From positions 32,001 to 96,000 of IMG/VR virus record IMGVR_UViG_3300005805_000047: a stretch of DNA of 64,000 bases; one strand, written 5' to 3'. Every line of letters starts with the position of its first letter. Within the stretch, counting starts at the first letter, position 1. Origin of the DNA: a virus. The notes beneath the pieces were generated by a model, which ran no database searches, had not been told where the DNA came from, and saw only the letters and a list, made by a program, of their open reading frames with translations. Position numbers and translations under genes: made by a program. This document shows, piece by piece, positions 9,985 through 36,757 of this stretch.

Positions 9985-11985
9985 ATGGCTTGGAACTCAC
10001 CTAAAAACAAGGGATCGCTTGCTTCATCTGGCAAGTCAGCAGTTGGCCCCGGTGCGCCCATCGCCCAAACGCTTGGACTTGTTGGAAAATCCTACAAAGA
10101 TTCGTGGGACATTGAACGCGCCTACCGAGAGGGTATGCAACGCGTTACTTGGGTTGCTCGTTGTATTGATGTCATAGCAGGGAACCAAGCACGTCTGCCA
10201 ATTATTTTGCGGAAAGACAATTCCCCCGATGGAGAAATTCTTTCTGACAAGAAGATGAACAAATCATCTTTGCTTGAAGTTTTGAATACAAAATCAAACA
10301 TTGGCGAGAATGCTTTCATTTTCAGATACAGACTCTCAGCACAATTGCTCCTCGGCACCCGTGGTGCCTTCATTGAGAAGGTTCGTGGCAGGGATGGAAG
10401 TATCGTCGGACTAAATCTTTTGCCACCCCAAGCAACTGCCCCGATTCCCGATGCAAAGAAATTTGTTTCTGGTTATGAAGTGACACTGCCTCATGGTCAG
10501 ACAACAATTCTAAAGCCAGAGGATGTTGTTTGGGTTCGCCGACCACACCCACTTGACCCCTATCTCTCGCTAACACCCATGGAAGCAGCTGGGGTTGCTA
10601 TTGAGATAGAGAATTTTGCCAAACTTTACAATAGAAATTTCTTAATGAATGACGGTAGACCCGGCGGTTTGCTCGTCGTTCGTGGAATGCTTGACGAGGA
10701 AGACAAGGAAGAACTAAGGAATAGGTTTAGAGGAAATCTTTCTCGCGCTGGACAAACAACCGTTCTTGCCGCAGATGACGGTGCCGAATATGTTGATGTC
10801 GGCGCTTCGCCACGAGATGCTGCCTACATCCAAATGAGGCAAATAACAAAGGAGGAAATCCTTGCTTCATTCGGTGTTCCCGAATCTGTTATCGGCAATG
10901 CTTCTGGTCGAACATTTTCAAATGCTTCCGAGGAAATACGAGTGTTTTGGACCGAGACAATGCTTCCACACTTGGAGCCGATTGCCAGATCTCTTGATGA
11001 GTTAGATGATGTCAACTATGTGGACTTTGATACCAGTGAAGTGCCGGTTCTTATGCTCTACAAACAAGAACGAGAGCGCTACCTAAGTGACGAGTTCTCT
11101 CGAGGTCTCATTAGCCTCAACGAATACCGAATGGGAAGTGGTCGCAAAGAGGTTCAATCGGATCTCGCGGATTCATTGTTGATGAACCCGAACCTCACTC
11201 CAATTGGTAATACGAAAAAGAAAATGGAAGCACCACCAATGATGATGCCGGGTGGTCCGCCACAGGGTGCCGTACCCGGAATGGAAGCAGGCGGGCAACC
11301 TCCAGCAATGCCAGAAATGCCGGGGGCAGGCACTCCACCAGCACCAGAAGGTGCAGAGCCAGACACAATGGCTGGGGCAATCGCCGCCGCCATGCAGCAA
11401 GCCAACCCATCTGGGGCAACCGATGTCCCAATGGCAACGGCAGAGCCAGCACCAATTGGTCAAGTTCCAGTCGAGGTGAAAGAAGCAGATTCAGAGAGGG
11501 CAGTGGAGCGATGGGCAGAAATACTTGGACGCTCATTGGAACGACTCATTGAAAGACAGCAAAGAGTTGTTATGGAGAAGTCCTTTGGGTCGAAGTCAAG
11601 GAAGGCACTGTCATCTGGAACCCTTGAATCTTCATCGGTGTTCAACAAGGACATCTGGGTCAAGCAATTGGAAGACGATGTTCGTCCAGTACTGTTCGCC
11701 ATCATGCAGGACTCAGCAGAATCTAACGGCCTGCCAAAACCAGAAAAGAAAGACATGTTGAAAGCGGCAGAACTGAGCTTGTTGCAACTCCAGGATTTAA
11801 ATGAACAAATTGGCAGAGATATTGAAACGGCAATTAAGTCAGCAATCTCCACAACGGGCGAAAATGCTCGGTCGGCTGTGTTCCGAGAAACCCTTATTGA
11901 GAGCTATGCCCAGATTGATGCCAAGGATCGATTTGTTCTCGCTCAGCATGTTGCGTCATCGCTTTGGGGTCAATTTAGTAATTAG
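9985..11985 (+). CDS. HK97-family portal protein with Pro/Met-rich linker and C-terminal extension
   Basis: WVARCIDVIA, LLLGTRGAF, LSLTPMEAA, NDGRPGGLL, EILASFGVPES.IG. Confidence 0.93.
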   Translation: MAWNSPKNKGSLASSGKSAVGPGAPIAQTLGLVGKSYKDSWDIERAYREGMQRVTWVARCIDVIAGNQARLPIILRKDNSPDGEILSDKKMNKSSLLEVLNTKSNIGENAFIFRYRLSAQLLLGTRGAFIEKVRGRDGSIVGLNLLPPQATAPIPDAKKFVSGYEVTLPHGQTTILKPEDVVWVRRPHPLDPYLSLTPMEAAGVAIEIENFAKLYNRNFLMNDGRPGGLLVVRGMLDEEDKEELRNRFRGNLSRAGQTTVLAADDGAEYVDVGASPRDAAYIQMRQITKEEILASFGVPESVIGNASGRTFSNASEEIRVFWTETMLPHLEPIARSLDELDDVNYVDFDTSEVPVLMLYKQERERYLSDEFSRGLISLNEYRMGSGRKEVQSDLADSLLMNPNLTPIGNTKKKMEAPPMMMPGGPPQGAVPGMEAGGQPPAMPEMPGAGTPPAPEGAEPDTMAGAIAAAMQQANPSGATDVPMATAEPAPIGQVPVEVKEADSERAVERWAEILGRSLERLIERQQRVVMEKSFGSKSRKALSSGTLESSSVFNKDIWVKQLEDDVRPVLFAIMQDSAESNGLPKPEKKDMLKAAELSLLQLQDLNEQIGRDIETAIKSAISTTGENARSAVFRETLIESYAQIDAKDRFVLAQHVASSLWGQFSN

Positions 11986-12075: not shown

Positions 12076-12585
12076 ATGATGGACAACCTTCTTTTTAAGT
12101 CAGGCAACAGTGGTCAAGTAAACATTGATGAGGCGCAGGGCATAGTTGAGTGCTTTGTAGCTGGAATCGGAAACAAGGACTCTGTCGGCGATGTTGTTAT
12201 TTCTGGTGCATTTGCCAAGAGCCTTCTCAGAAGAAAACCACGAGTCGTTTGGGGGCATTCGTGGAATGATCCAATCGGTAAAGTTTTGGAAATGTACGAA
12301 GTTCCCATTGGGGACTATCGCCTACCAGCCAAGATGCGCAATGCAGGAATTGGCGGTCTTTATGCCAAGGTTCAGTTCAACCTAAATTCAGAAAAAGGCA
12401 AAGAGGCTTTTGCGACCGTTGCATTCTTCGGCGAAGATCAAGAGTGGTCTATTGGTTACAAAACCATCGATTCAGTTTTTGACCCAAACCTGCAAGCAAA
12501 CATTCTCAAAGAAGTTGAACTGTACGAAGTATCACCAGTTCTTCATGGCGCAAATCAACTAACTGGAACAATCTCAATTAAGGGC
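12076..12585 (+). other. HK97-type prohead protease domain (peptidase S78) of the giant protein
   Basis: GNKDSVGDVV..GAF..SL, WGH (His at 12256)...PIGK, WSIGY (Ser at 12448), LYEVSPV..GAN. Confidence 0.92.
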
Positions 12586-15500
12586 GATGAGAAGGGTCAT
12601 ATGCCCATTATTCCAATGCCGGGAATGGGGGCAACAATGATGCAGGAAATGCCCCGCATTGTTGTTATTGCTGCCCCACAGGATGGTGCCAACGAATCAA
12701 GTGAAGGCGACCCATTTGCTGCAGGAATGTCACAGGAACTTTCACAGCCAGACAAGATGGCACTTCAAGCAGAACTAACTGAACGAACTGGTTCGAAGAT
12801 TGAAGTAATGAATGCAACCGAGAACACCGTCGTGTTTAGACGTACAACACAAGATGGCAAAGCATCGATGTACAGACTCCCTTATCACAGGGAGGGTGAC
12901 CAATATATGTTTGGAAAGCCAGAACCATACACCGCAAACAACCCGACACCTCAACCAATGCAGAATATTGAGCAGAAGCCAGGTGCACCAGTCGTCGTCC
13001 CAAATGGTGGTATTGCATATCGCAATGATGACCAACAAGAAATGCTAAGTATGTTCTCCAACGAGAACATGGTTCAGTCGCCATGGGGTAAGTCAGATGT
13101 ATCCCACCTCATTGAACTACCAGAGTCATACATGGCGAGTGCGAAAGATTTTATTTCTCCAGTTCTTCGCCACCACAAACTTGCTGCCCGACCAAATGCT
13201 AAGGGAATTGTCATTGATGGGTTATTGACAGCAAATGCACTAGATGCTCTCCAGAATGCCGTCAAGGCTTTGGGAGCAACGCTCGGCCAAACGAGCGGAA
13301 ACATTGGCCAGGCAATTGGAAAGATTCGCGACCTTGCGCAAACATTCAATCCGTATGCGCTTGACGGTGACGGCGACGGGTTTGTTCAAGACGGAAGTGC
13401 ATTCCAAAGACCGTATATTCCTATCAAGAAGCCTGGTTTTGATTTACCAGATGTCCGAGGTCGCAAGCGAAGCGGCGATGTACTACTTGACAAGCCACGC
13501 TCTACTCCGAAACTTCCCAAAGACAAGAACACTTGGACTCGCGCACAACGCAACGAAGCGCTACTTGCAGGCATTGTTGAACCAGAGACCAGAGAAGATG
13601 TTTCATTCCTTGCCAATCGTCGCCCAGAAAATGAGGGACTTGCCAAGTATTGGGACATGTCGGAATCTGATCTCACTAAAGAGGGAAACCGACTCGTCAA
13701 TTCCAGAAGGCAATCCACTGGTGCTGAGAAGGAGAAGATTGACGAAGAGTTGCTGAAGGTTTCGCACGAATTCCAGCGACGCGCTTCGTATGCCGAAACA
13801 TTTGGTCAAGAGTTTGTGCCGCCAGCAAAACGCGAAGTCCCAGAAGCGATGGTTCCGGAAGCAGATAAGCCAAAGCCGGCCAAGCCAGGTAGAACAGAAG
13901 CAGAAGGTCTTGCATCTGCCGGAAAAGTGTTTGATGCCCTGAATACCGATGACCTGACAGATGGCAAGGGTTATCGAAAATGGGAAGACTTGGACGATGA
14001 CGAAAAGTTGGAAATGTTCCAAGAAGTCCAATATGACTACCTGTACGAAAACTACGGAAATCTTGGCGACGATGGTCTCGTTGAAGCAATGGAAGATCCT
14101 AGGTATGACGACGAAATCCTCGAACACGCAGAAATGGTTTATGACAAGATAAAAGCCAAGCGCGAAGAAGATGGCGACATGGCGGCAGATTCCGCTATGG
14201 ATAGGGCGCGCGAAGAGGATGGCTTTGGTTCACGTGGAGAAGAACCAGATGCTGATTCACTGGCTCAGCGCGACAGAGAGAGGGCACTTGACGAACAAGC
14301 AGATGCTGCTCTTGATCGTGCCCTTGAAGGTTTCATTGATAAATATGGCGAAGATGAGTTTGACAAGTTAACAGCAGAAGAGCAGGACATCCTCCTTGAG
14401 CAGGGCAGAGATCAAGCAAGGGGACTTGCATCATCTGGAAGCAAACTGCATACCAATACCGATGTATTGATGGAAATTGCTCGCCGCGATGGCTGGAGGG
14501 GTGGCGACAAGCAACCTCCTGTTAGGTCGTACCGAAAAGCACAGGAAGCCCTTGACGACTGGAACAAGCTCTCATTGGAAGAGCGCAACAGCCTGCTTGA
14601 TAACGATGAACCAACAATCAAAGAATTTGTGGATGCACTACTCAAAGCCCGCGACAACAGACTTGCTGGAATCAGATCCGTTCAAGCCGAGCGCAGAAAT
14701 GCCGAACGAAAGCGTCGTGCCGCAGAGGAAAAACTAAAGAGACAGTTTGCCCGCGGCGATACATCGGGCGTAGATACGAGTGCGCTTGCGGACTATTTCC
14801 CCGAGGACGAATACGGCAACCTTGGCCGAAGTGGTCGTGAGTATGTCGATGCTGTTTTGACAAACTGGGCAGAAATGTCCCAAGCTGACAGAGATAAAGC
14901 AATCCGCGATAACAGAACTATCGTCGAGGATCCAGATTCTGTTGTTGAGACCCTCAGGGATGCACTCAGTGAATACGGATACAAAAATCCCAAAATCGCA
15001 CAATTCCTTGATGAAGCAGAAGCAGAAGCAGACATGCTGGAGATGTCTGGTTTCGAATCGCGGGGTGAGGGCAAGTTCGGGTCAAACCCCGAGGACAGCA
15101 AGGCCGCACAAATATTTGATGCAATTCTTGACAAGTACTGGAAGATGTGGGGATTTGATGTTCCCGATGCAGATGACAAGGGTTGGGATGAGCCGTTTGG
15201 TTTTGCCAGTCTTGGAAATGACGAGGAAGTAAAGCAATCAAAACTTGATGAACTCGTTGGCGGTGTCAGGGAAAGATTGATTGCCGAACTTGAGACTGCC
15301 GATCCAGCAACATGGAGACCATCTTGGAGAAATGATTCTCTTCCAATCAATCCGATAACCGGAAAACCATACAGGGGCTTCAATGCATTCTGGTTGATGA
15401 TGCGCACAAGTGGCGAGAACTACAGAACTGGTCGGTTTGCTGGCTTTAATCAATTGAAAGCACGTGGTGCTCAAGTTCGCAAGGGCGAGAAGGGTGTTCC

Positions 15501-18500
15501 CATCCTGCGTCCACAGTTGGTCAAGAAGGAAGATGAAGACGGCAACATTAAGGAATTTGTTGTATTCCGTGGTGCAACCGTATTCAATATTGACCAAGCT
15601 GATGGTGGCGACGAGGCCCTCAGGGCAATACCGGCCGACCTGCCAGAGTCGCAAAGAATTGCAATCCTTGATGAAACATTGAAGGAACTTGGCGTAAGTG
15701 TTCGTACAGAGAACATCACACCGCACTACAACCCGGATGGCGATTACATCTCCATGCCAGATTTCTCAAAGGGAACCAGCCCGCTTGAATGGACTTCAAC
15801 ACTTGCCCATGAGGCAGTGCACTGGACTGGGCACAAGTCGCGCCTTGATCGACCAAGCCTCAGGGATTACAGTTCAGACAAGAAGGTCAGAGCATACGAG
15901 GAACTTGTAGCAGAAATTGGTTCCGCAATGTTGCTCGCCGCACACGGAATAGATGCTCCGTTCCGCCAGGATCACGCCCCATACATCAAGGGTTGGGTTT
16001 CGCTTTTGAAAGACGACCCTGATGCTCTTGGTAATGCATTCAAAGATGCGCAGGCCGCAGTCAACCACATGCTTGAGAAGTCACCAAACCTGCGCAAACT
16101 ATTCGGTGGTCTTGATAATGGCAAGAAAGCACCCGACGTTGATGCCTCAACAGAAGTCAATGTTCCTGTTGGTGCGAGCGAGGGTTTTGCATCGCTACAT
16201 CGCGTTCGCACCCCAGGTAGCGAAGCACTTGCTGGAGTTCTATATGACGACAACAGCGGCGAACTCATGGTCGGCTTCCTCAAGGGTAAGTCGTGGGATG
16301 ATTTGGGCGATGATGAGAGAATCGCTTGGATTGACCGCGTCAATGCAGGGCGCGCAGAAGTTGGTGGATACAAGCGTCCGCTTAACGACTCAGAAATTGA
16401 CGACTTGGCACGTGAAGCATACGAAGATGCTCGTGATGTTGGTTGGTACGTCTATGAAGGCGTCACCATGGAAGAAGTTCAGGAACTTGCCGCAGTAAAG
16501 AGCAAGGGTCGCCACATCAATGCCCTAAAGAAACTCAAGAAGGCCCGCAAGGCATCCGATGAAGATCAGTTCAACTTTTTTGGAAGGTCTGAGCGTGTCC
16601 AAGATGTAGCAAAGACAAAGCAGACCGATGGTTTCTCCTCGCGTGGTGGAAACGACAACATGATTGTCGAAAGAGACCCACGAACTGGTTATATAACAAT
16701 TAGTGCGATGGTTACGGGTGACCGTGGTGCCAGCGAAGAGAATCGCGGAACACGACGAATGAGGGTCATAGTTGCCGGCGGCTCAATAGCCGAAGCAAAA
16801 CGAAATTTCAGAAACAGAATGAAAGAGGACAAAGTTTCATTCGCTGGCGACAGTGATGGATTTGCCTCACGCGGACCTGCTGAACCAAACGAGGGATTGC
16901 GCCGGCATAAATTGATGCCAGTAGATATCCGTGAGAGAATGCCAGAACTTTACTCAACAGAAGATGTGGATACCGAAGATAAGATTTTGGCAGTAAAGTT
17001 TTTCTCACCATACTCCAATTGGACTTGGTACGGAGTTGAGTTTGACGGCGAAGATACTTTCTTTGGTTATGTAGAAGGATTTGAAAAAGAGTGGGGCAAC
17101 TTCTCCCTCAGTGAACTTGCTGGTGCACAGTTGGGTAATGGAATTCCTGCCGTTGAAAGGGACATGAGCTTCCGACCAACGAAGTTTGAGGATCTCAATG
17201 GCGAAGGAATGCCAACAATCACCGAGGATGGGTTTGCTTCCGGTGGCTCAAAGAGAATTGGTATTGAGCCGCAATACAACGATCCACGATGGATTGACAA
17301 AACCCAACAGCGAATTCTGAAACAAAATACAGACTGGAATAGTTTGTCACATGATGACCAAATTGATTGGGCAAACTCTTTCCTTGACGAGTATCTCAGA
17401 GAAAATGAAATGGGTCATGGTTTGTCGGATGTTGCCAACGGTCGCAGACTGACTGGTCGCCCAGACATTGACCTACTGAACTATGCAGAGGATGCATACA
17501 GCAAAATGTCAGATGCACATATGCGTAGGCGAGCCCAATTTGGTGAAACAGACGAAGGTTTTTCATCCGTTGGTCGTCGTACTCGCAGGCTCGGAACCAA
17601 GCCAAGCGATGCCGTTGACTACGTTGCGTGGGATCCAGAGACAGAGAGCCTCTTTGTTGCCTACAAGCGCGGTGACGGTCGTTCACAGATGTATGTCTAC
17701 GAAGGTGTCAACTCCGATGAGGCATTGGCAGTCGAGAATGCAGACAGCCTCGGTAAGGCAATCAACGCAATCAAGAGAGCCAAGAATGTCCGACAGGCAA
17801 CCCCAGAAGAAGTGATGGGTCTTGCCGATACGGATAAGAGAGAAGCGAGCGAGACAAGGAAGCGACTCGCCAGATTGGTGCTTGAAGAGACCAGAGATGC
17901 CCTCAAGGGGATGGAAGTTGAATTCTTGAGCGACACTGAAATAAATGTGTCGGATGGTTCAGAAAAAATGGTTCGCGTCTCCCTTGACCCGGACACATTG
18001 GAGTTTACGGTCAGCAAGATTCGCACTATTCGCGGCGGCAGGGAAGAGCCAGATGATGAAGAGCTCTACGATAGCGAAAGCGCACTAAGTGCCGGAGATG
18101 TGCGAACGCTTACCGGTCTCTTCATGAACGACCTTCAGAAAGATCTGGATGAGGAAAGTCGTCTTGAGCGAGAAATTGATGATGCTCGACGCGAACTTGA
18201 CATGGCCGGAGATGCTCCAGGGGTCGAGAATGTCGATGTTACATACTCAACAGCACTAGATGCAGTTGATTACAACCCGTCAACACAGGAACTCCGTGTT
18301 TCGTACAAAGACGGCGGAACATACATTTACGAAGGCGTTGACCGAACTGCATTTGAGGAATTCAAGTCTGCCCCAAGCAAGGGTCGCGCAATGAACGACA
18401 TTAAGCGCGCCCACCCATACCGAAAAGATAGCGAGTGGACTGGCGGTGTCGATGAGGATCGTGGCATAGAGGAATTTGATGTTCGTGGCTCAGAAGCAGT

Positions 18501-21500
18501 TGAGAAAGTCACCTATGACCCGAGCAAGGAAGAACTCACGGTCGTTTATTCTGGTGGTAAGGGCTACGTCTACACGGCAGTTACCCGAGAAGAAGCAGAT
18601 GCTGTTCGTTCAGCACCAAGTAAGGGTCGCGCAATTAATGATGTAAAGCGTACCCACGATGTTCGAAAGGCAGATGCACCAGTAGAGGAACGACCAACTG
18701 GCAGTCGTGGAATATCTCCTGATGTCAGTAAGGGAAAGTCGTTTGATGAAAGACTGGAACTTCTTGAAAAGTTGACACAAGAAGAAGATGACTTGGCAGA
18801 CCGCCTAAGCGGAGAGTTTGATGGTGCTAATCCAAAGGGTGATTACCTTACCCGTGGCGATGCACAGGGGTCGGCCACTGCCACAAGTCGCAAGAAATAC
18901 GGAACCGATGCATTCAAGCTGCTCAATGATTTGTTTTCCTCTGCAACACCAGCAGAGCGAGAGAAGATTAGGGAATGGTTTGATGGGCGCGAAAAGAGAA
19001 TGTCGGCAGAAAGAGCCGCTCGTACATCACGAACGATTGATCCCGCACCGACAGCAGCACCCAAAATGCCAACTCGCAAACCACCACGAGGTGGCAAGCG
19101 TGTCCGCAACCGCAATGTGGTTATTGAGATGGAGCAGGGCACCCTTGATGAAATTATGGAGGCAGAATCCAAGAACATCACGGTGGATGCGCTTCGTGAT
19201 GCCGCTGGTTCCGTAAATGGAAAGTACACAAAGGGTCCACGTAAGGGCAAGAACAGGGGTTCGGACACCATTACGGTGAGAGATGCAGAAACCGGCGAAC
19301 TCCTCCATGCTAACGAAATACTTCTCACATCATCTGTCATGCGCGGCAGTCCAACGGCTGCCAATAGGAAGCGCGGCTACATCAGAGCACGTTCGTATGC
19401 TGGTCGTCAAGGGCACAACATCACCAAAGATGAAGGTCCAAGTCTGCGCGGCGAAGGTCGTGGAATGACCGATTACGACAAGCGCGTGTACGGTCTTGGC
19501 TCAGATGAAAAGAACCGCGAATACGGTCTCGCTTCACGGTCAAGTCTTGACAGATTGCTGACTGAGCCAACTCCCCAAGAAGAGGTGGAATCCTTCCAGA
19601 GATATCTTGACTCCGAGTACGGCGAGTACTTCATGGACTACACCCAAATGGATGATGAGGAACTCAAGAAAACCTTGATGCAGCGTTACCGAATGAGTCG
19701 CAGTGAAGCAAATGCAACTGCCAGACAGATTCGCAAGGATCAAGACACTTTGGATGAGCTGTACATGGCGGCAGATGATGCTGGCTTTGATTCTCGTGGC
19801 GGACGAGAACTTGTCGTTCCTGACGAATATCGCATGTATGGCGTGACCAAGGATGCCCTACTGGATGAACTATATAGCGAAGATCTAGATGAGGACGAAG
19901 CAGAAAGAATTGCTGATTACTGGGCTCAATCTGATGGTTTGTGGGATAAGTATTTGGATCGCGCAATCAGTAACAACGAGGGCAATGTACTTAGGGCAGT
20001 ATCAGATGCAGCACAACAAGCCTACGAGGATTACCTCAGTGCATCAGCGGACAGCCTTGAGCAGAGACGACTTGACGGCTTTGCCTCGCGTGGTCAGCGC
20101 CTTGGCGAAATTAGGCCGATGGAAACTGCTGGTAATAACTGGATTGAATCAGCACGGCTTGCAGAACCTCTTGACATAATTAATCTTGAAGATGATGATG
20201 CAAGGGAGAAATTTGAGGAAGCCCTAATTGAGGCCGGGGTGCTTGATCGCATCAATACGTCTGAGTACATGGACGATGTCTATGAAAGAATTCTCGTATT
20301 TGCACCAGACACCGACAACGGAATAATGGAAGCAGCCAGTGGTAACCAAGCTAGGAATGCACCAAGAACTCGATACATAGTCCCCACCAAGGACAATAAA
20401 TATGCAATCGTTGAATTTAGTGGCGACTACGACGGTGCACCAGATGGACCTCCGGGTTATTACCCGAACTACGAAGTGGTGGATACGGCCCCGTCAATTG
20501 GAAGCGCCATAAGAAATGTTCAGAAACGTGAACAAAACGACATTGGTGCCCCTACCGGCAGGGCAGGAGGTCGTACATCGGAAGAAGGCTTTACATCCAG
20601 CAGCTACGAAAGTGATGCTGAGTTTCTGACTAGAAGAGCCAAAGAGCGAGAAGATGTGCTTAATGCACCAGTAGTAAAGGGAGAAAAGAGCCCATTACTA
20701 GACATGAGTCCATATAGCGCATTTGATGCATTCTATGGTGGCGGCTCCAAGTTCATTAGGCGCAGTGAGCAAACCTATGATATCTACGGTCCGGTTTCAA
20801 TGCCAATCGCTCAACAAGACAGTGCATTCCATACTGGATTTGCCGATCAAATAGTCAAAGACTTCTCCAGAAGTAATCTGACAATTGATGAACTTGCAGA
20901 CCGATTTGATATCACGCCAACCCAAGTTCAGGAAGTTCTTTTGGATGCCAAAGCAAACATGCTTGACCTTGAGCGACTGCGCGAGAAACAAAAAAAGACA
21001 TCGTTGCGGTCAACAGAAGAATCTGATATTAGGGCCGGCGAAAGGGTGGAGAAAATTTTTGTTGGCGATCGCAAGCATACAGACATCCCAGAATTGACCG
21101 GAGAAGCCCTTGCAAGACGAGAGCAGAGACTGGCGCATCGAAGAGCCTTGGCAGAGAATGATGCCATAAGAGAAAAAGAAGGTGCTGCGCTGAAAGAACT
21201 TGAGCGCACCACAGAGTATCGAGATGCAGAAAGCAATTACAGCCGAGCTCAAACCTATAACCGTCAACACGAGTACTGGATTGGTAAAGGTATAGAACTC
21301 CAGGAAAACATAGACAATCTCAAGGAGACAGACGACCTGTCTCTCCTCACCACCAGTGCATTAAACGGCGAGGACGTTCTTGACATACTCAAAGAAATAA
21401 ATGAAGATTGGGATTTGGATTTTAGAGATCCAACTGCCGATTGGTACGAAAATGACTATGGGACTTTGGTTGATTGGGATGGCGAAGAAGTTAGTTACGA

Positions 21501-24500
21501 CCAACTTGAATGGGATGATTTTGAAGTTGACCTTGAAAGTCTGAGCATCGAAGAACGTCAAAAACTTATTGATGCGGTAAAAGAGAAAAAGAATTGGATT
21601 CTTGAAACAGCACAAAAAAATGCGAGAGAGTTGGGTTTTTCAGAAATTCCAAACGAAAGAGATCTTCAAAAAGCAATCAGGGACAGTAACGCTGCCGCCA
21701 GAAAGCCAATTGAGGATATGAGGAATGAAGTCGCTAAAAAGTTCCCGAAAGTTCGCGTCCCAGAGGAACCCTCAAAGAGATCTTCGCTTTATGGTATCCG
21801 TAATGAAAAGGGTCAATTCCTTGAACTTGAAGAGTTGGCCACTGGGTGGGCAGAAGAAATACGGGTTGCCAAAGCTGAATCAGCAGCGCAAAGAGCTGAA
21901 CTGAATGCCCAATTGAACCGCGGCGACCAAAATCTTGAGGATGGCTTCGCCTCAAGGTATTCACGGTACGAGGGTGGCTGGGATGCAGTTGCTGAGTCCA
22001 GTGAAATGCCAAACCGACCAGAACGAGCAACCCCAATGTGGGACGACCTGGATGAGGATCAGCAGAACGAGTTCATCCACGAAGTGGATTACGACTACAT
22101 GTACGACAACCACTTCGGTCTCGGTGATGATGGAATCGTTGAGGCCATGGAAGATGGAAAATATGACGATGCGATAAGCGAACACGCGCAAATGGTGTGG
22201 GACACAATCGCTGAAAGAAAAGAAAAGAAACGCTTGATTGATGCGGTTACTGCAACTGGGGTAGATCCAGAAATGGCAGGACCAATTGCCGATTACTGGT
22301 TCAACAGCGATGGCATACACGACAAGTACATGAAGAGGAGTAACGGCGACCTCGGTAAAGCAATGGAAGTTGCCTACGAGGATTATCTCAGTGCGTTGGC
22401 AGACATGCAGGAAGATGGCTTTGCCTCTCGCGGTTCTGCAACAAAACCATCCGTTGATGCTGAAACACAGAAAATTATTGAAGGTGCATCGCTTGGTCAA
22501 TTAGCAGAAATGATTCAGGACGATTTGGCTGATCAAGGAAAGGAAATGTACTTCGGAGCAGTTCCCTATATTGATGCCCTATCCACCATGGATTCCATGG
22601 ATGACCGATATGGCGCCGATTCAGCACAAAGTGTCGTTGCCTATGCGCTGAGCAACCTTCAGACCTACAAGGGCGCCAAGGCGCGAGCAATTAAGGCAGA
22701 ACTCAAGAAGCGACTTGATGAAAAAGTCAACAGAGATGGCTTTGCCTCGCGTTCAAGTGGCACAGATTGGGGTCCATTGGCTGGAGAGGTTGCTCCTGCA
22801 AGACCACTTAGGATTGAAACTGAATGGTTGAATTTTGAGGATTTAGACCCAGAAGAGCAAGATCAACTCATTCGAGATGGCATTGAGAACATTGACCGAG
22901 TGGCTCAACCAGACATTGACCTAGAAGCTGAGAGGGACTTCATAATTGAGGAATATGACCGTGAAGCCAGAGCGGCCCGATCCGATGCGGCCGAATCACT
23001 GCTGAAAGAAATATACGAACTCTGGGACCAAGATGCTGATGCCGATAATATTTTCCAAAAAAACGGCAACCTTGCCTACGCAGAAGAACTAGTCAAGAAC
23101 GGAGACTATGTTGAAGATTATGAACTTGCTGAAGCAAGAAATATTGTGGATGAAGTCAGAGAGCGATGGGAAGAGCGTAAAAAGAATTCAGTAGATGACG
23201 AACCCTCGGACATAGACGACGAAGACAGCGATGGCTTTGCTTCTCGTATGCCCAATGATGGCGAACGACTCATGAGGAGAGGGAATAGGGACTTCCTATC
23301 CGATGAGTTCTCGCCACGTGAATATAGGCAGGCAATGAGTGGGTTGGACAAGGTCAGGAATAACACCGGGTCTCCTGTTACCACAGAGGAGAATGCCGCC
23401 ATCAGGAAACTTGCCGACCTCTATCGCGCGAGACCAAAGACAACGCGAAATGAACGAGATGCAATCAACGATGTAGTAAACAGTCTTAATAGTTACAGAT
23501 CTCGCCGAAGTGGTAACGAAGGCTTTGCCTCACGCGGTGGTCGCACGGAACAGATTGATGTACGCAATTCCAGTGCCGTCGAGCAGGTCACCTATGATCC
23601 ATTGAAAGAGGAACTTCTCGTCGTCTATAGCGGCAACAGAGGATACATCTACGAGGGTGTCACTCGTGGCGAGGCAGATGCACTGATTGATGCCCCAAGT
23701 AAGGGGGGCGCAATCAATGGCATCAAGGCAACACACTCGTTCCGCAAGGCATCCGATTCGGATGTTATGGACTTTGATATTGATCCAGTTGCTGTCCGCA
23801 AGGCAGAAGTTGATGCAAACTGGGAAAGGCTTCCTAGTTCCGACAAGGAGCAATACCTCAGGCGCGCGACCAATGCCGGCATAGCCGACGGAACCGGTGA
23901 ATCTGCTGATGAACTGTTGTCCGCCGCCAAGTTGCGAGCCATGGACGACAGAGAACTGGCAATGCTTGAACGTGAAGCAATCGGCAGGGGTGAATCCTCA
24001 TCGCGCCGAATTGATGTCTCATCTAGCTCTGCGCTCAACTACGTGGACTACGACGAAAAGACGAGAACACTAAGTGTTGAGTTCCGTGGACGAGATGGCA
24101 ATGGGAATGGAACTCTTTACAACTACCAAGGTGTTGAACCAGACGTGGTTGACGAACTTGAGAACTCAGACAGTCGCGGTGCGACCATGCGTAGAATCAG
24201 GGACAATTACGAGTTTACGACGAGCGAGAGACTGCCACAGTCTGCATACGAGGGTCTTTCATCGCGCAGTGAGACGGACAGACTCGCCGCTTGGAAGCCA
24301 GTAAACCAAGATCTCAGAAGCCTGAGAGATCGAGTCAAAGGTAACGAAATCAATGATGGCTTGATTGGTATTGGGGATGCAGAGGTGAGGCCAGGTAGTG
24401 ACTTCTATAGGGCTCGTCGGAGAGCATACATGGGCCTCATGGATGAACTTGAAGAAATAATCGCCAATGCAAAAGAAGAGGGAAACCTTGACTTGGTTGG

Positions 24501-26772
24501 GCCGACAGAGAAGTCAAGGGGTCGATTTGAGAGGCTCATCAATGCAGGTGACTGGGCACAGGCCAGATTCCACATGATAGGAGAAATTGCCTCAGTTCGA
24601 GAATCAAGAGCCAGTGCAGAAAACGGCTTTGCCTCGCGGGGTGGTCGCAAGTCAACCGAAGAGTACAAAAAGATAGTTGACTCATTGCCAGATCCGACCG
24701 AGCGTCCGAACAAGAACAGATACATGCAGGCAGCCGATGGTGCTCGCAATGTTGTTGAGGACAGGTATGCACTTATTCATGCTCGTCGCAGAATAGCCAA
24801 AGAGATGGCAGAAGCAAACGGCGTGGAGTGGAAAGACGGCGTAGACATCTTTGATGTTACCAACGGCGATGATGATGATTTAGAAATCTTGATGGATCTT
24901 GACAACAGGATTGAAGAACTCAATAAGTACGTCACTGCCAATGACAAGGAATATAGGCGAGTTCGCAACATGGAACAGTTGGTGCTCCAGAAGGACTCCG
25001 AATTGTCTGACATCAAAGACGGAATAGACCTCGCACTTGAAGAGTACGAAATTACCGAACAAGACATTAGGGAATATTCGGGCGAAAATGCCAAGGAATG
25101 GTTCACCACAACACCAGAGGAAAATACAAACGAATTGGCAAAAAGCCTAAGAGGCAGATTGCTGGATCTGAATAATCATGAGGATGAAAACGACAATACT
25201 TCTCTCTCCAGAGAATATTCGGAAGATATCACCAAAGTCATAAAGTTAATCAGAAATGGAACGCCGGAAGATTTGCGTGAAGCCGCAGAAACAATGCAGG
25301 AAATTATCGGTAAGCAGAGAAGCGATTATCAAGACCGATACAAGTCCTACGAGTATGAAGGCGACGAACTAATTGACTCTGGTTACCGTTCAGTTCCATT
25401 TTTTGACGAGGAATCTGACCTTGACTTGGATGGGGAAGATGATTGGGACTACTCGCAAGAGATAGATGAAGAAGATGGAAGATTGAATGTAATTGCCGAT
25501 GAACTCTACGGTCCTGAGCCAAAGGACAAGGAGACGGTTGACGAGTACATGTCAATGAGTACGGAGGATGGTTTTGCTTCGGGTGGTCGTCGTCGCCCAG
25601 GTCGCCGCAATCAGGGTGGCAACGGCCAACGTATGGCTCCTACGACTCGCTATTCTGATGAAGATAGGCAGAACTTGGCCGATAGGAACATCCTTAGGTC
25701 TCGTAAGCGTCCTGCCAAACGGCGTCAACCACCGGATCAGTCTGAGTGGGAGGGTTTTGCCTCAACGAACCTAATTGACGATGATGTCAATGATATGGCC
25801 ACTGACCCGCGCGGTGCATTTGAGGGTGGCGAACACGGGCCAGGCAAAGATATCTCTCTACGGAAGATGTGGGAAAACATCCGTAGGTCAGGAGAGAATA
25901 ACGAGTGGTTTTCTGAATCAATGAGAGCAGAAGACTTGGCGAGAGATTTGAATATTCCTCGAAATGTCGCACAGGCACTACTTGATGCCAGACCACAATC
26001 TGGTCGACCTGAAATGTTCATTGACAATCCGTATCTGGCCGACACTCTTAGCCAAAGAATAGGCATGAGTAGAACTCGTTTGTTTGGATTTGACCCACTT
26101 AAGTATTACGACGATGAGGGCAACCCAGCATCCACACCAGAAGAGATTGATGCGGCCATAGAATCTGAGCGAGCACGACGTGCGGCGAGACTTGCCGCCC
26201 GAGAAGGTCGCAGAACCGGCAAGGGAGATCTCTATCGCGGTGAATCATCCAATGTTGATGTCCGTGACCTTGAGTCAAAACTCAACATAAAGTTGACCGA
26301 CGATAACGGGGATCTCCTTAAGCCAACTGCCCTTGAGAGAGCGGCACGAGATACTGGTCTGGGTTGGAGTCTTGAGAAGTGGCGTCGCATCCACAGCAGG
26401 GGTGGTGCGTTGACACCGCAAGATATTGAGAAACTTGTCGAGCGTGGGATTCTTGGCAAAGAGGCAATGCCGGAAAGGGGAGACCTTTCTTTTGGGGAGG
26501 TATTCCAGTGGCCAGGGTTTGCAGACCTAGGGTCAAGCAGAATCATTGATGCCCTTTCAGAAACCCTCGGATTGAGCAGGGACGAGATAATGAAACAGCG
26601 TCGAACAATCCAGCAAGCCCTTGCCCTTGCCAACAAGGGTCAGAGAAAGACAATATCCACAAGGAATTTACAGCAAGGGAAACTCAAATTGACCAGAGCC
26701 AAGATTGCAGAACTTGCCGAAAGACTTGGCCTTGATGCTTCTGAGTTTGACCGCTGGTTCAGTGGCGAGTAA
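12076..26772 (+). CDS. giant 4,898-aa prohead protease-fused multidomain polyprotein (S78 protease, ArdC, 6x KTSC, DUF2958, ~23 GFAS linkers)
   Basis: Uninterrupted ORF in the prohead protease gene position; domains recognised by motif, see sub-features. Confidence 0.9.
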   Translation: MMDNLLFKSGNSGQVNIDEAQGIVECFVAGIGNKDSVGDVVISGAFAKSLLRRKPRVVWGHSWNDPIGKVLEMYEVPIGDYRLPAKMRNAGIGGLYAKVQFNLNSEKGKEAFATVAFFGEDQEWSIGYKTIDSVFDPNLQANILKEVELYEVSPVLHGANQLTGTISIKGDEKGHMPIIPMPGMGATMMQEMPRIVVIAAPQDGANESSEGDPFAAGMSQELSQPDKMALQAELTERTGSKIEVMNATENTVVFRRTTQDGKASMYRLPYHREGDQYMFGKPEPYTANNPTPQPMQNIEQKPGAPVVVPNGGIAYRNDDQQEMLSMFSNENMVQSPWGKSDVSHLIELPESYMASAKDFISPVLRHHKLAARPNAKGIVIDGLLTANALDALQNAVKALGATLGQTSGNIGQAIGKIRDLAQTFNPYALDGDGDGFVQDGSAFQRPYIPIKKPGFDLPDVRGRKRSGDVLLDKPRSTPKLPKDKNTWTRAQRNEALLAGIVEPETREDVSFLANRRPENEGLAKYWDMSESDLTKEGNRLVNSRRQSTGAEKEKIDEELLKVSHEFQRRASYAETFGQEFVPPAKREVPEAMVPEADKPKPAKPGRTEAEGLASAGKVFDALNTDDLTDGKGYRKWEDLDDDEKLEMFQEVQYDYLYENYGNLGDDGLVEAMEDPRYDDEILEHAEMVYDKIKAKREEDGDMAADSAMDRAREEDGFGSRGEEPDADSLAQRDRERALDEQADAALDRALEGFIDKYGEDEFDKLTAEEQDILLEQGRDQARGLASSGSKLHTNTDVLMEIARRDGWRGGDKQPPVRSYRKAQEALDDWNKLSLEERNSLLDNDEPTIKEFVDALLKARDNRLAGIRSVQAERRNAERKRRAAEEKLKRQFARGDTSGVDTSALADYFPEDEYGNLGRSGREYVDAVLTNWAEMSQADRDKAIRDNRTIVEDPDSVVETLRDALSEYGYKNPKIAQFLDEAEAEADMLEMSGFESRGEGKFGSNPEDSKAAQIFDAILDKYWKMWGFDVPDADDKGWDEPFGFASLGNDEEVKQSKLDELVGGVRERLIAELETADPATWRPSWRNDSLPINPITGKPYRGFNAFWLMMRTSGENYRTGRFAGFNQLKARGAQVRKGEKGVPILRPQLVKKEDEDGNIKEFVVFRGATVFNIDQADGGDEALRAIPADLPESQRIAILDETLKELGVSVRTENITPHYNPDGDYISMPDFSKGTSPLEWTSTLAHEAVHWTGHKSRLDRPSLRDYSSDKKVRAYEELVAEIGSAMLLAAHGIDAPFRQDHAPYIKGWVSLLKDDPDALGNAFKDAQAAVNHMLEKSPNLRKLFGGLDNGKKAPDVDASTEVNVPVGASEGFASLHRVRTPGSEALAGVLYDDNSGELMVGFLKGKSWDDLGDDERIAWIDRVNAGRAEVGGYKRPLNDSEIDDLAREAYEDARDVGWYVYEGVTMEEVQELAAVKSKGRHINALKKLKKARKASDEDQFNFFGRSERVQDVAKTKQTDGFSSRGGNDNMIVERDPRTGYITISAMVTGDRGASEENRGTRRMRVIVAGGSIAEAKRNFRNRMKEDKVSFAGDSDGFASRGPAEPNEGLRRHKLMPVDIRERMPELYSTEDVDTEDKILAVKFFSPYSNWTWYGVEFDGEDTFFGYVEGFEKEWGNFSLSELAGAQLGNGIPAVERDMSFRPTKFEDLNGEGMPTITEDGFASGGSKRIGIEPQYNDPRWIDKTQQRILKQNTDWNSLSHDDQIDWANSFLDEYLRENEMGHGLSDVANGRRLTGRPDIDLLNYAEDAYSKMSDAHMRRRAQFGETDEGFSSVGRRTRRLGTKPSDAVDYVAWDPETESLFVAYKRGDGRSQMYVYEGVNSDEALAVENADSLGKAINAIKRAKNVRQATPEEVMGLADTDKREASETRKRLARLVLEETRDALKGMEVEFLSDTEINVSDGSEKMVRVSLDPDTLEFTVSKIRTIRGGREEPDDEELYDSESALSAGDVRTLTGLFMNDLQKDLDEESRLEREIDDARRELDMAGDAPGVENVDVTYSTALDAVDYNPSTQELRVSYKDGGTYIYEGVDRTAFEEFKSAPSKGRAMNDIKRAHPYRKDSEWTGGVDEDRGIEEFDVRGSEAVEKVTYDPSKEELTVVYSGGKGYVYTAVTREEADAVRSAPSKGRAINDVKRTHDVRKADAPVEERPTGSRGISPDVSKGKSFDERLELLEKLTQEEDDLADRLSGEFDGANPKGDYLTRGDAQGSATATSRKKYGTDAFKLLNDLFSSATPAEREKIREWFDGREKRMSAERAARTSRTIDPAPTAAPKMPTRKPPRGGKRVRNRNVVIEMEQGTLDEIMEAESKNITVDALRDAAGSVNGKYTKGPRKGKNRGSDTITVRDAETGELLHANEILLTSSVMRGSPTAANRKRGYIRARSYAGRQGHNITKDEGPSLRGEGRGMTDYDKRVYGLGSDEKNREYGLASRSSLDRLLTEPTPQEEVESFQRYLDSEYGEYFMDYTQMDDEELKKTLMQRYRMSRSEANATARQIRKDQDTLDELYMAADDAGFDSRGGRELVVPDEYRMYGVTKDALLDELYSEDLDEDEAERIADYWAQSDGLWDKYLDRAISNNEGNVLRAVSDAAQQAYEDYLSASADSLEQRRLDGFASRGQRLGEIRPMETAGNNWIESARLAEPLDIINLEDDDAREKFEEALIEAGVLDRINTSEYMDDVYERILVFAPDTDNGIMEAASGNQARNAPRTRYIVPTKDNKYAIVEFSGDYDGAPDGPPGYYPNYEVVDTAPSIGSAIRNVQKREQNDIGAPTGRAGGRTSEEGFTSSSYESDAEFLTRRAKEREDVLNAPVVKGEKSPLLDMSPYSAFDAFYGGGSKFIRRSEQTYDIYGPVSMPIAQQDSAFHTGFADQIVKDFSRSNLTIDELADRFDITPTQVQEVLLDAKANMLDLERLREKQKKTSLRSTEESDIRAGERVEKIFVGDRKHTDIPELTGEALARREQRLAHRRALAENDAIREKEGAALKELERTTEYRDAESNYSRAQTYNRQHEYWIGKGIELQENIDNLKETDDLSLLTTSALNGEDVLDILKEINEDWDLDFRDPTADWYENDYGTLVDWDGEEVSYDQLEWDDFEVDLESLSIEERQKLIDAVKEKKNWILETAQKNARELGFSEIPNERDLQKAIRDSNAAARKPIEDMRNEVAKKFPKVRVPEEPSKRSSLYGIRNEKGQFLELEELATGWAEEIRVAKAESAAQRAELNAQLNRGDQNLEDGFASRYSRYEGGWDAVAESSEMPNRPERATPMWDDLDEDQQNEFIHEVDYDYMYDNHFGLGDDGIVEAMEDGKYDDAISEHAQMVWDTIAERKEKKRLIDAVTATGVDPEMAGPIADYWFNSDGIHDKYMKRSNGDLGKAMEVAYEDYLSALADMQEDGFASRGSATKPSVDAETQKIIEGASLGQLAEMIQDDLADQGKEMYFGAVPYIDALSTMDSMDDRYGADSAQSVVAYALSNLQTYKGAKARAIKAELKKRLDEKVNRDGFASRSSGTDWGPLAGEVAPARPLRIETEWLNFEDLDPEEQDQLIRDGIENIDRVAQPDIDLEAERDFIIEEYDREARAARSDAAESLLKEIYELWDQDADADNIFQKNGNLAYAEELVKNGDYVEDYELAEARNIVDEVRERWEERKKNSVDDEPSDIDDEDSDGFASRMPNDGERLMRRGNRDFLSDEFSPREYRQAMSGLDKVRNNTGSPVTTEENAAIRKLADLYRARPKTTRNERDAINDVVNSLNSYRSRRSGNEGFASRGGRTEQIDVRNSSAVEQVTYDPLKEELLVVYSGNRGYIYEGVTRGEADALIDAPSKGGAINGIKATHSFRKASDSDVMDFDIDPVAVRKAEVDANWERLPSSDKEQYLRRATNAGIADGTGESADELLSAAKLRAMDDRELAMLEREAIGRGESSSRRIDVSSSSALNYVDYDEKTRTLSVEFRGRDGNGNGTLYNYQGVEPDVVDELENSDSRGATMRRIRDNYEFTTSERLPQSAYEGLSSRSETDRLAAWKPVNQDLRSLRDRVKGNEINDGLIGIGDAEVRPGSDFYRARRRAYMGLMDELEEIIANAKEEGNLDLVGPTEKSRGRFERLINAGDWAQARFHMIGEIASVRESRASAENGFASRGGRKSTEEYKKIVDSLPDPTERPNKNRYMQAADGARNVVEDRYALIHARRRIAKEMAEANGVEWKDGVDIFDVTNGDDDDLEILMDLDNRIEELNKYVTANDKEYRRVRNMEQLVLQKDSELSDIKDGIDLALEEYEITEQDIREYSGENAKEWFTTTPEENTNELAKSLRGRLLDLNNHEDENDNTSLSREYSEDITKVIKLIRNGTPEDLREAAETMQEIIGKQRSDYQDRYKSYEYEGDELIDSGYRSVPFFDEESDLDLDGEDDWDYSQEIDEEDGRLNVIADELYGPEPKDKETVDEYMSMSTEDGFASGGRRRPGRRNQGGNGQRMAPTTRYSDEDRQNLADRNILRSRKRPAKRRQPPDQSEWEGFASTNLIDDDVNDMATDPRGAFEGGEHGPGKDISLRKMWENIRRSGENNEWFSESMRAEDLARDLNIPRNVAQALLDARPQSGRPEMFIDNPYLADTLSQRIGMSRTRLFGFDPLKYYDDEGNPASTPEEIDAAIESERARRAARLAAREGRRTGKGDLYRGESSNVDVRDLESKLNIKLTDDNGDLLKPTALERAARDTGLGWSLEKWRRIHSRGGALTPQDIEKLVERGILGKEAMPERGDLSFGEVFQWPGFADLGSSRIIDALSETLGLSRDEIMKQRRTIQQALALANKGQRKTISTRNLQQGKLKLTRAKIAELAERLGLDASEFDRWFSGE
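15214..16100 (+). other. ardC: ArdC antirestriction module (ArdC-N/DUF1738 ssDNA-binding plus zincin-like MPTase) within the giant protein
   Basis: W..SW, PINPITGKPYRGFN, FNQ....GAQVRKGEKG, VFNIDQ, HEAVHWTGHKSRLDR (15808), YEELVAEIGSA. Confidence 0.9.
16201..24213 (+). repeat. six dispersed KTSC domains in the giant protein (~16201-16540 split, 17602-17780, 18232-18420, 18475-18660, 23554-23740, 24010-24213)
   Basis: Each matches S.A(V/L)..V.Y(D/N)....EL.V.(Y/F)..G..Y.Y.GV.......L..A.SKG...N. Confidence 0.85.
16912..17190 (+). other. DUF2958-like module within the giant protein
   Basis: VKFFSPYSNWTWY..EFDGED.FFGYV.G.EKEWG.FSLSEL...ERD..F.P. Confidence 0.8.
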
Positions 26773-36650: not shown

Positions 36651-36757
36651 TTGCGCTGTAAGCCTTTGATTATCTAGTATCTTGGTGAAGTATCGGTTGG
36701 GTGCTATACCTAAACTGGAATTCCATTCATCCAATCACTATCACAGAGGAAACCAAG

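Follow-up and report, generated by a model that had tools for sequence, protein, structure and literature searches.

A DGDGDG peptide module on phage polyvalent proteins: a candidate handle for loading cargo into the head

Background

To our knowledge, the choice of proteins that travel in the head together with the DNA is understood for only a few model phages, namely T4, P1, P22 and N4. Encapsulins load diverse cargo by means of a short and flexible cargo-loading peptide that binds the inner face of their HK97-fold shell; such peptides are usually C-terminal, no protease takes part, and the compartment that is loaded is cellular and not viral. In T4, the diverse internal proteins (IPI-III and Alt) have in common only the capsid targeting sequence, which loads them into the scaffolding core. 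This sequence comprises about 10 residues, is strictly N-terminal and is cleaved off on its C-terminal side (PMC3012670). In HK97, the scaffolding domain of the capsid protein is cut at K103/S104, and the protease is carried into the prohead (PMC10275583). Proposals on record for the giant polyvalent proteins of phages include fusion to MuF or portal domains and autoprocessing by zincins (Iyer et al. 2017, PMC5512222); a search of that paper by terms returned no shared calcium-loop peptide, linker code or targeting tag.

The window considered here is a stretch of 64,000 nucleotides from an uncultured phage, whose genome is complete at ~151 kb (150,897 bp). A preliminary description of the window had noted a 26-residue peptide with a DGDGDG core in two polyproteins, and had proposed that it targets them to the capsid. 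Below we examine this tag in its genome, its spread among other phages, its sequence and its surroundings.

Results and discussion

Two polyvalent proteins share one module

Both tag carriers of this phage are textbook polyvalent proteins, with MPTase-PolyVal, ArdC-N, KTSC and zincin domains and with portal and protease adjacent (Table 1). The first combines many unrelated effector domains and directly follows the portal gene. The gene of the second lies downstream of the capsid gene at a distance of 23 kb and is preceded by a non-coding tract of 1 kb; no promoter-like word common to this tract and other genes was found. The ~30 modules of the phage are made as only two chains. Against ~30 joints of the G-F/L-A-S kind the phage has only 2 tags, and the tag was accordingly rejected as an inter-module joint.

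Both peptides translate as originally quoted and lie in frame in their polyproteins. They are identical at 19 of 26 residues but only at 64% of nucleotides, and 13 of the 19 identical residues are specified by different codons, which points to selection on the peptide and not to a recent DNA copy; with synonymous codons differing in this way, a recent duplication or gene conversion was rejected. In a BLASTP comparison of the two polyproteins the single significant segment pairs residues 390-448 of the first with residues 14-64 of the second (E 2e-8). The proteins had been described as otherwise dissimilar, and the module that they share therefore comprises ~55-60 residues rather than the 26 first reported. 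Throughout the complete genome, read in six frames, the DGDGDG core occurs only twice, and a 32-position profile matches these two loci alone, giving one tag in each giant protein. The tag had also been said to head both polyproteins; in the first it instead comes after a middle region, itself preceded by the protease domain (residues 19-165). Its placement upstream of the cargo modules is borne out, as in both proteins it precedes every G-F/L-A-S joint, the first of which lie at residues 608-616 and 451, respectively.

Table 1. Coordinates of the tag copies, their carriers and neighbouring head genes in the window
Feature	Position	Strand	Remarks
Portal protein	9985..11985	+	phrog_2662, E 1.6e-63; immediately upstream of the protease-headed polyprotein
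Polyvalent protein of 4898 residues (protein 1)	12076..26772	+	Peptidase_S78 (residues 19-165), then ArdC-N, MPTase-PolyVal, DUF2958 and five KTSC, with G-F/L-A-S joints between
HK97-type prohead serine protease domain	12130..12570	+	Pfam PF04586, 38.3 bits (cutoff 21); phrog_80, E 1.7e-26
Full shared module, protein 1	13243..13419	+	Residues 390-448; BLASTP E 2e-8; predicted helices, Lys-Ala site, spacer, tag core
Candidate maturation cut K397/A398, protein 1	13255..13281	+	K-A-L-G; 24 residues before the 26-residue peptide
Tag core, copy 1	13336..13413	+	Residues 421-446; profile E 6e-18
First joint-like peptide after the tag, protein 1	13897..13923	+	G-L-A-S
Major capsid protein	36701..38143	+	phrog_10, E 1.8e-64
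Start of second polyprotein of 3152 residues (protein 2)	61698..64000	+	Continues beyond the window to genome position 103,156
Full shared module, protein 2	61737..61889	+	Residues 14-64; BLASTP segment
Candidate cut K30/A31, protein 2	61779..61802	+	6 residues before the 26-residue peptide
Tag core, copy 2	61806..61883	+	Residues 37-62; profile E 1e-19
First joint after the tag, protein 2	63048..63068	+	D-G-F-A-S-R-G

The tag is confined to phages and rides on unrelated carriers

The tag is widespread and confined to phage sequence. At E<=1e-3 its profile retrieves 479 protein clusters out of 1.84 billion representatives, and 282 stretches were confirmed in IMG/VR; among 185,579 species genomes of cellular organisms 75 stretches fit the pattern, none of which was confirmed as the tag. 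The second-best profile match, P0018, proved to be a false positive built of FN3 repeats and was set aside. The tag did not turn up in any Pfam family, solved structure or paper: a Pfam search of the region returned no family, two profiles run against the Protein Data Bank gave no significant match, the ESM Atlas held no usable match, and literature searches with the core string or with DxDxDG plus phage yielded nothing relevant. The sole match among the PHROGs is phrog_7924, a family of unknown function. The tag-bearing phages span sipho-like, myo-like and 150-kb phages.

Among 52 carriers of middle size we identified Zeta_toxin (9), ART-PolyVal (4), ADPrib_exo_Tox (3), Phage_portal (2) and Peptidase_S78 (1) domains, as well as kinases and GNAT domains. 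Further carriers are a portal-MuF fusion, NUDIX proteins, sigma-r4/HTH proteins and small PG_binding_1 proteins, and there are also protease-headed giants, N-terminally tagged giants and small proteins of 50-240 residues. Alike in nothing else, these carriers look, by their domains, like delivered cargo or head parts. A carrier has one to five copies, and in some of those with 3-5 the tags lie at module borders. Overall the tag is N-terminal in 93 cases, internal in 82 and C-terminal in 19; tiny proteins may have two copies in tandem at an end, and Pro/Lys/Ala-rich linkers flank the tag. The co-occurrence with G-F-A-S joints suggested by the two polyproteins does not extend to these carriers, many of which are small proteins devoid of joints, while one relative has a different joint.

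Most tagged genes sit inside virion gene blocks. The genes of small carriers follow the capsid gene or the protease, precede the major tail or sheath gene, or lie among fibre genes. The relative G001 (89.5 kb) has seven tags in six separately encoded cargo proteins, all between its portal-MuF gene and its capsid gene, and the head proteins conserved between it and the present phage have no tag. The number of tags thus follows polypeptide chains and not modules, with 2 per ~30 joints here and 7 in 6 proteins in G001. One carrier adjoins replication genes (primase and phosphoesterase).

Searches of cultured phages by tblastn with the tag, a double-tag protein and a small carrier recovered no tag, which is weak evidence because the low-complexity filter masks the core. 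Matches to Arthrobacter and Microcystis phages were obtained with a small carrier but were confined to its N-terminal domain, which has no tag, and a search with P0034 gave intein matches only. The tag is also lacking from Streptomyces phage Circinus, whose capsid protein makes it the closest cultured relative to one carrier lineage, and from Microcystis phage Mae-JY09.

The core resembles an EF-hand loop but fails its canonical tests

The consensus of the core is [F/Y]-[D/N/K]-P-[D/N]-A-x-DGDGDG-h-V-Q-[D/E]-G-T-x-[F/W/H]-E-R-P. The DxDxDG pattern pointed out in the preliminary description is real: across 188 copies, positions 1, 3, 5, 6 and 8 of an EF-hand loop are occupied by D (188), D (182), D (187), G (188) and V/I (185), respectively. 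Position 12, in EF-hands the bidentate Glu/Asp, is in contrast Thr in 177 of the 188 copies (94%), with the acid of the loop lying at position 10 and a Pro 4 residues before the loop. The Pfam EF-hand models do not match the tag at E<=10, and the best matches in the Protein Data Bank, which are non-significant (E 0.36 and 4.3), fall on EF-hand loops, one in Rab11-FIP3 and one in a polcalcin. The core is therefore EF-hand-like yet fails the canonical tests of an EF-hand. Residues that would have no role as metal ligands, namely Q at loop position 9, G-T and E-R-P, are as invariant as the Asp residues. Asp-Pro self-cleavage at the tag was considered and rejected, since no more than 59 of the 101 internal copies have the Pro.

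AlphaFold2 models both copies as disordered, with pLDDT of ~30 and 52-65. In the first protein it places helices at residues 386-407 and 410-420, followed by coil, and in neither model does a helix come after the loop. Flanking helices of the EF-hand kind are not predicted. The tag is thus predicted to be flexible, as is typical for a docking motif.

Candidate maturation cuts adjoin the tag

A K-[A/S]-x site lies 8-42 residues upstream in 48 of 60 internal tags (80%) as against 15.6% of control windows. In the first polyprotein the motif K-[AS]-L-[GN] occurs once only, at K397/A398, and this site is kept in every tagged orthologue of alignment A6; the K30-A31 position of the second polyprotein is likewise present in the orthologues P0005-P0010 and L001. 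The capsid protein of this phage also has K-[AS]-L-[GN] just once, at the end of a ~110-residue N-terminal helical domain that closes with E-F-K/S-L-N-G-G (37079-37102; the solidus between K and S marks the putative cut). This capsid site resembles the K103/S104 cut of HK97, an analogy from which we infer cleavage here. The present phage is akin to HK97 in its S78 protease, in a capsid N-terminal domain of ~110 residues ending in K/S-L, and in a site of the same kind just upstream of the tag. In contrast, HK97 has neither cargo polyproteins nor such a tag, and the cuts of the present phage are predicted from its sequence. On the downstream side, G001 and the L006-L013 giants have a joint peptide 5-55 residues beyond the tag. 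The present genome has no joint that close, and with an upstream Lys cut the tag would remain on the mature cargo.

A portable handle for head assembly and its rivals

Since the tag usually adjoins probable capsid-protease cut sites, it is most likely to serve as a portable handle by which cargo is taken into the head. We give an even chance to this reading in its full form, in which the tag is a head-assembly handle bracketed by maturation cuts and working like the T4 capsid targeting sequence. The tag would then be the core of a portable module of ~45-60 residues, made up, from the N-terminus, of a Lys-Ala/Ser site of the kind cut by HK97-type prohead proteases, a basic Arg/Gly-rich spacer of 10-25 residues that is often predicted to be helical, and the DGDGDG core. 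Exposed and flexible, the core would dock the carrier onto a component of the assembling prohead, with the inner face of the capsid, the portal and the protease/scaffold core as candidates, and perhaps with a divalent cation bound in its DxDxDG loop. Whatever polypeptide bears the tag would thereby be enclosed in the head, where cuts by the prohead protease at the flanking sites and at the G-F/L-A-S joints would release the enzyme modules, to be delivered together with the DNA. With ~30 modules on only two chains, one tag per polyprotein would be enough.

The comparison with T4 rests on a short and seemingly portable peptide that adjoins candidate prohead-protease cut sites and unites unrelated proteins which presumably travel in the head and have no other feature in common; here BLASTP aligns the two polyproteins significantly over the module alone, and the carriers at large have unrelated domains. 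The two peptides have no sequence likeness. Unlike the T4 sequence, the tag belongs to a module of 45-60 residues with a DxDxDG loop, may be N-terminal, internal or C-terminal in 1-5 copies, and is conserved across very different phages; its best-supported cut is on the N-terminal side, and it stays on the cargo if no joint is close. Packaging has been shown for T4, whereas for the tag it is proposed. The polyvalent proteins offer a second parallel, as both carriers here belong to them and others have ART-PolyVal, MuF or portal domains. The cargo-loading peptides of encapsulins, which may also be likened to the tag, are of a different sequence.

The original suggestion of capsid targeting fits the unrelated carriers, the virion-block genes and the flanking probable cut sites. 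It fits less well with tags that are not always N-terminal, with up to five copies per carrier, and with the carrier beside replication genes. Other observations also speak against a handle. None of the phage structural proteins that might be its partner comes near the motif in conservation, and carriers that already hold a portal or protease domain would need no targeting signal. The second carrier of this phage is encoded 23 kb away from the capsid gene. No partner was picked out by the protease fold, by a capsid N-terminal motif (none is common to the tag-bearing phages) or by co-occurrence with phrog_80, which was found in 2 of 5 further tag-bearing records.

An unlikely alternative is that the core serves as an exosite recruiting the prohead protease to the nearby Lys-Ala/Ser site and the joints, with incorporation into the head as a side effect. 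The strong enrichment of the Lys site upstream of the tag, the joints closely downstream in several lineages, the union of tag and protease in one chain in protein 1, and the tags at module borders of multi-copy carriers would all suit such docking. Yet with ~30 joints and 2 tags in this genome most cuts need no tag, and carriers of 50-110 residues often lack both Lys site and joint. A complete tag-bearing genome of 136 kb has no phrog_80 protease, and a low-confidence AlphaFold2 model that covers the protease, the middle region and the tag does not place the tag on the protease.

We regard as similarly improbable a role of the tag after delivery, as a calcium-sensitive switch or as a motif that binds a conserved host component and thereby localises or activates the delivered proteins. 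Conservation above that usual for phage structural proteins is what one would expect of a conserved host target or of a metal site intrinsic to the tag; in this genome the first mature module would keep the tag, and the first half of the core is shaped like EF-hand loops. Against this, the carriers would act outside the cytoplasm (PG_binding_1) as well as inside it (zeta toxin, sigma-like HTH) and include portal and protease fusions, so that their common ground is the virion and not a host compartment. In several lineages cuts on both sides would part the tag from its cargo, and the absence of a confirmed cellular protein with the motif argues that the tag is no obvious mimic of a host motif.

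Least probable is a small generic element, a metal-binding hinge or linker that recombination has spread among the modular proteins of phages and that has no specific partner, since, for all its DxDxDG pattern, predicted flexibility and occurrence between modules and within low-complexity linkers, the tag keeps its non-metal residues as invariant as its Asp, stands in tandem at the ends of tiny proteins where a hinge is needless, is absent from the modular proteins of cells and is tightly coupled to an upstream Lys site.

Conclusions

The reading that we favour, a head-assembly handle, has a broader form to which we give somewhat less than an even chance: the module may be a general address label of a broad set of uncultured phages, with the proteins fused to it enclosed in the capsid and released by flanking cuts. 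If true, the principle of T4 capsid targeting would have been invented a second time, independently and in a much more widespread form, possibly calcium-gated, with a cargo spanning enzymes, toxins, transcription factors and cell-wall binders. Such a label would explain the loading of the giant polyvalent proteins, and the coupling of the tag to a Lys-Ala/Ser site testably predicts the ends of the mature proteins. The module would also be a candidate handle, or ready-made tool, for packaging foreign proteins into HK97-fold capsids. For uncultured phages at large it would provide a sequence rule predicting the delivered proteome, including anti-defence enzymes, toxins and early transcription factors.

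Identification of a conserved module in two giant polyproteins

The two peptides quoted in the preliminary description are present in the sequence exactly as given, and their likeness is beyond chance. BLASTP of one giant protein against the other yields a single significant segment (residues 390-448 against 14-64, E = 2e-8). The DGDGDG core occurs twice in the six frames of the whole genome (a complete record of 150,897 bp with direct terminal repeats), and a 32-position profile matches it only at the two tag sites (E = 1e-19 and 6e-18). The copies are identical at 19 of 26 residues; their DNA agrees at only 64% of positions and the codons differ for 13 of the 19 shared residues, indicating that the peptide was kept by selection without recent copying. 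The original length of 26 residues was an underestimate, as the BLASTP segment delimits a module of about 55-60 residues. Nor does the tag head both proteins: in the first it follows an HK97-type prohead serine protease (Pfam Peptidase_S78) and a middle region, the remainder comprising ArdC-N, MPTase-PolyVal, DUF2958 and five KTSC domains. Its proposed location upstream of the cargo is borne out, as it precedes every G-[F/L]-A-S joint, the peptide between modules, in both proteins.

Between protease and tag the sole confidently folded part is a small domain of one helix and four strands (pLDDT about 80), kept in the protease protein of G001, an 89.5-kb relative phage. The A/C-rich tract 5' of the second polyprotein holds short GTAG and GGTATCACT repeats, and no long words common to other upstream regions were found in it.

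Features of the tag-bearing proteins and the capsid region
Feature	Window position	Residues	Remark
Portal gene	9985-11985 (+)		
First giant protein	12076-26772	4898	
Prohead protease		19-165	first protein
Helix and four-strand domain	12733-12930	220-285	first protein
Candidate cut		K397↓A398	first protein
Tag copy 1		421-446	first protein
DUF3721 protein	36051-36650	199	just 5' of capsid gene
Major capsid protein gene	36701-38143 (+)		
E-F-K↓S-L-N-G-G	37079-37102		capsid protein
Non-coding tract	60711-61697		about 1 kb
Second giant protein	from 61698	3152	extends past window end
Candidate cut		K30↓A31	second protein
Tag copy 2		37-62	second protein

Sequence and predicted structure of the tag

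The 188 tag copies in cluster representatives define the core consensus [F/Y]-[D/N/K]-P-[D/N]-A-x-D-G-D-G-D-G-[L/I/F/M]-V-Q-[D/E]-G-T-x-[F/W/H]-E-R-P-[A/V], in which the three Asp, the following Gly, G-T and R-P are each conserved in over 90% of copies and the Q in 78%. Single copies are found in 96 representatives, two in 35 and three to five in 8. A second flavour, with P-R ahead of the loop and I-[Y/F] replacing V-Q, occurs three to five times per protein at the module borders of other polyvalent proteins, such as a 3015-residue portal and MuF fusion.

The first half of the core is shaped as an EF-hand loop, and its best structure-database matches are EF-hand loops, all non-significant. Canonical EF-hand tests failed: position 12 is Thr, flanking helices are not predicted and EF-hand profiles gave no match. 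AlphaFold2 renders the tag as a low-confidence coil in both models run, one spanning protease to tag in the first protein and the other a small protein with two tags, in which the PG_binding_1 domain is well folded; such a prediction would be expected for a docking motif whose ordering requires a partner or metal.

Distribution and carriers

A word-indexed search with a 43-residue query recovered orthologues of the second giant along with unrelated carriers: a zeta-toxin protein of 688 residues, another protein of 966 residues and several of 88-140 residues. With a small profile, an exhaustive HMMER search of 1.84 billion representatives detected 479 clusters at E<=1e-3; the high-ranking P0018 is a false positive consisting of FN3 repeats. 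The tag is confined to viruses: a scan of IMG/VR gave 282 confirmed stretches, and a scan of 185,579 bacterial or archaeal genomes, one per species, gave 75 pattern matches with none confirmed. None was found in cultured phages, a negative weakened by the low-complexity filter of BLAST. The tag could be placed in none of the families tested; its only match is phrog_7924 of PHROGs, of unassigned function, with no matching Pfam family, no significant match in the Protein Data Bank and no description in the literature searched.

The carriers fall within the polyvalent-protein class and are of types whose delivery by phages is established or has been proposed (PMC5512222, PMC3012670). Zeta_toxin is present in 9 of 52 mid-size carriers, the others including ART-PolyVal, ADPrib_exo_Tox, DUF3721, PI3/4-kinase-like, HipA-like, GNAT and peptidase domains, with Phage_portal in two and Peptidase_S78 in one. 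Further carriers combine NUDIX with an intein, or bear sigma-r4/HTH arrays; P0034, a 1720-residue polyvalent protein, has three tags, NUDIX and an intein with Hint and LAGLIDADG homing endonuclease domains. In small carriers (50-240 residues) one or two tags are accompanied by one other element: PG_binding_1 (confirmed in four), an end resembling LysM (lacking Pfam confirmation), an Ala/Lys/Pro-rich basic tail or a short amphipathic end. The 199-residue protein encoded just before the capsid gene is untagged and contains two DUF3721 motifs; its G001 relative (L047:9989-11014) has an N-terminal tag followed by a joint, and the motif recurs in tagged zeta-toxin proteins, e.g. P0011.

Gene positions

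What the carriers have in common is the virion, not a cell compartment. Here the first carrier directly follows the portal gene, with the capsid gene 10 kb beyond. In G001 (loci L016 and L047), whose portal, protease and capsid belong to the families found here, seven tags in six proteins all lie between the portal-MuF and capsid genes; head proteins conserved in both phages carry no tag. Its cargo consists of separate proteins, each tagged, whereas here about 30 modules form two chains with one tag per chain. Thus tag number follows polypeptide chains, not modules, a pattern more in keeping with an address label than with a joint.

At 12 loci a small carrier comes directly 3' of the capsid gene. 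Elsewhere small carriers follow the protease, immediately precede the major tail protein or the sheath, are set among fibre genes, or neighbour a transglycosylase close to the portal. One carrier adjoins primase and phosphoesterase genes, so the virion-block rule is not absolute. In G001 (L016:6664-9621 and neighbouring genes), the protease-headed protein includes DUF6321 and two sigma-70 region 4/HTH units, which might act as transcription factors after delivery. Two adjacent proteins encoded about 4 kb upstream of the portal in a complete 136-kb phage (L057:9269-10588) could form a virion-borne cell-wall-opening pair: one, of 218 residues, has two tags in tandem and an end of PG-binding type, and the other, of 217 residues, has a transglycosylase-like segment. 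A myovirus-like contig (L075; G007:C1:16877-17419) has a gene for a small tagged protein adjoining the sheath gene, and encodes a phrog_80 protease domain in a 1646-residue open frame, another protease-containing polyprotein.

Candidate cut sites and proposed function

Among internal V-Q-type tags in proteins of more than 250 residues, 48 of 60 have K-[A/S]-x 8-42 residues upstream, against 15.6% of windows drawn at random from those proteins (binomial p ~3e-28, the clusters being partly non-independent). The usual forms are E-x-K↓A-L and E-V-K↓S-L (arrow, candidate cut). The first giant protein has a single K-[AS]-L-[GN] in its 4898 residues, at the candidate site, and the capsid protein likewise has one, in E-F-K↓S-L-N-G-G. 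The mature HK97 protein reportedly starts with S-L-G. The capsid site closes a helical N-terminal domain, about 110 residues from the likely start Met; in HK97, a 103-residue scaffolding domain is removed at K103/S104 (PMC10275583).

On the other side of the tag, G001 replaces G-F-A-S with R-[V/I]-S-G-[S/A]-[M/I/L], which, or a related motif in one case, lies 4-55 residues past E-R-P at four of its seven tags (three with the joint proper). In the giants of L006-L013, which are tagged at the N-terminus, a G-[F/L]-A-S joint follows E-R-P by about 10 residues. In both lineages the tag would come off the cargo, like the T4 sequence; here 160 and 390 residues separate the two tags from their next joints, and the tag would remain attached to the first mature piece. 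In a distantly related lineage with the tag (L025:8799-9932, L053, L073), the capsid proteins have a Gly-rich N-terminal extension whose G-A-F-A-S-G-G aligns with the column of E-F-K↓S-L-N-G-G in the capsid protein of this phage, which suggests that the G-F-A-S joint is itself a capsid-maturation cut site, F-[A/K]↓S.

The tag might instead be a processing signal recruiting the protease, which we consider improbable. Similarly doubtful is action after delivery, as a calcium switch or host-binding motif, which would account for the unusual conservation; that the tag is a generic metal hinge appears very unlikely. The search for a docking partner yielded none: the AlphaFold2 fold from protease to tag shows no docking of tag on protease, the phrog_80 protease is absent from a complete 136-kb tag-bearing genome, and no motif is common to the capsid N-terminal domains of tag-bearing phages.

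The closest functional likeness appears to be the T4 capsid targeting sequence, from which the tag is set apart by its sequence, length, position and copy number, by the side of the cut and by how widely it is distributed; it would belong among packaging tags, a known kind. The analysis establishes the specificity of the tag, its conservation, its confinement to viruses, the variety of its carriers, where their genes lie and the statistical link with Lys sites. The best-supported reading, to which we give about even chances, is a portable head-assembly handle bracketed by maturation cuts. As such, it would dock to a prohead component, possibly binding metal, and cleavage at the flanking sites would be followed by delivery of the cargo.
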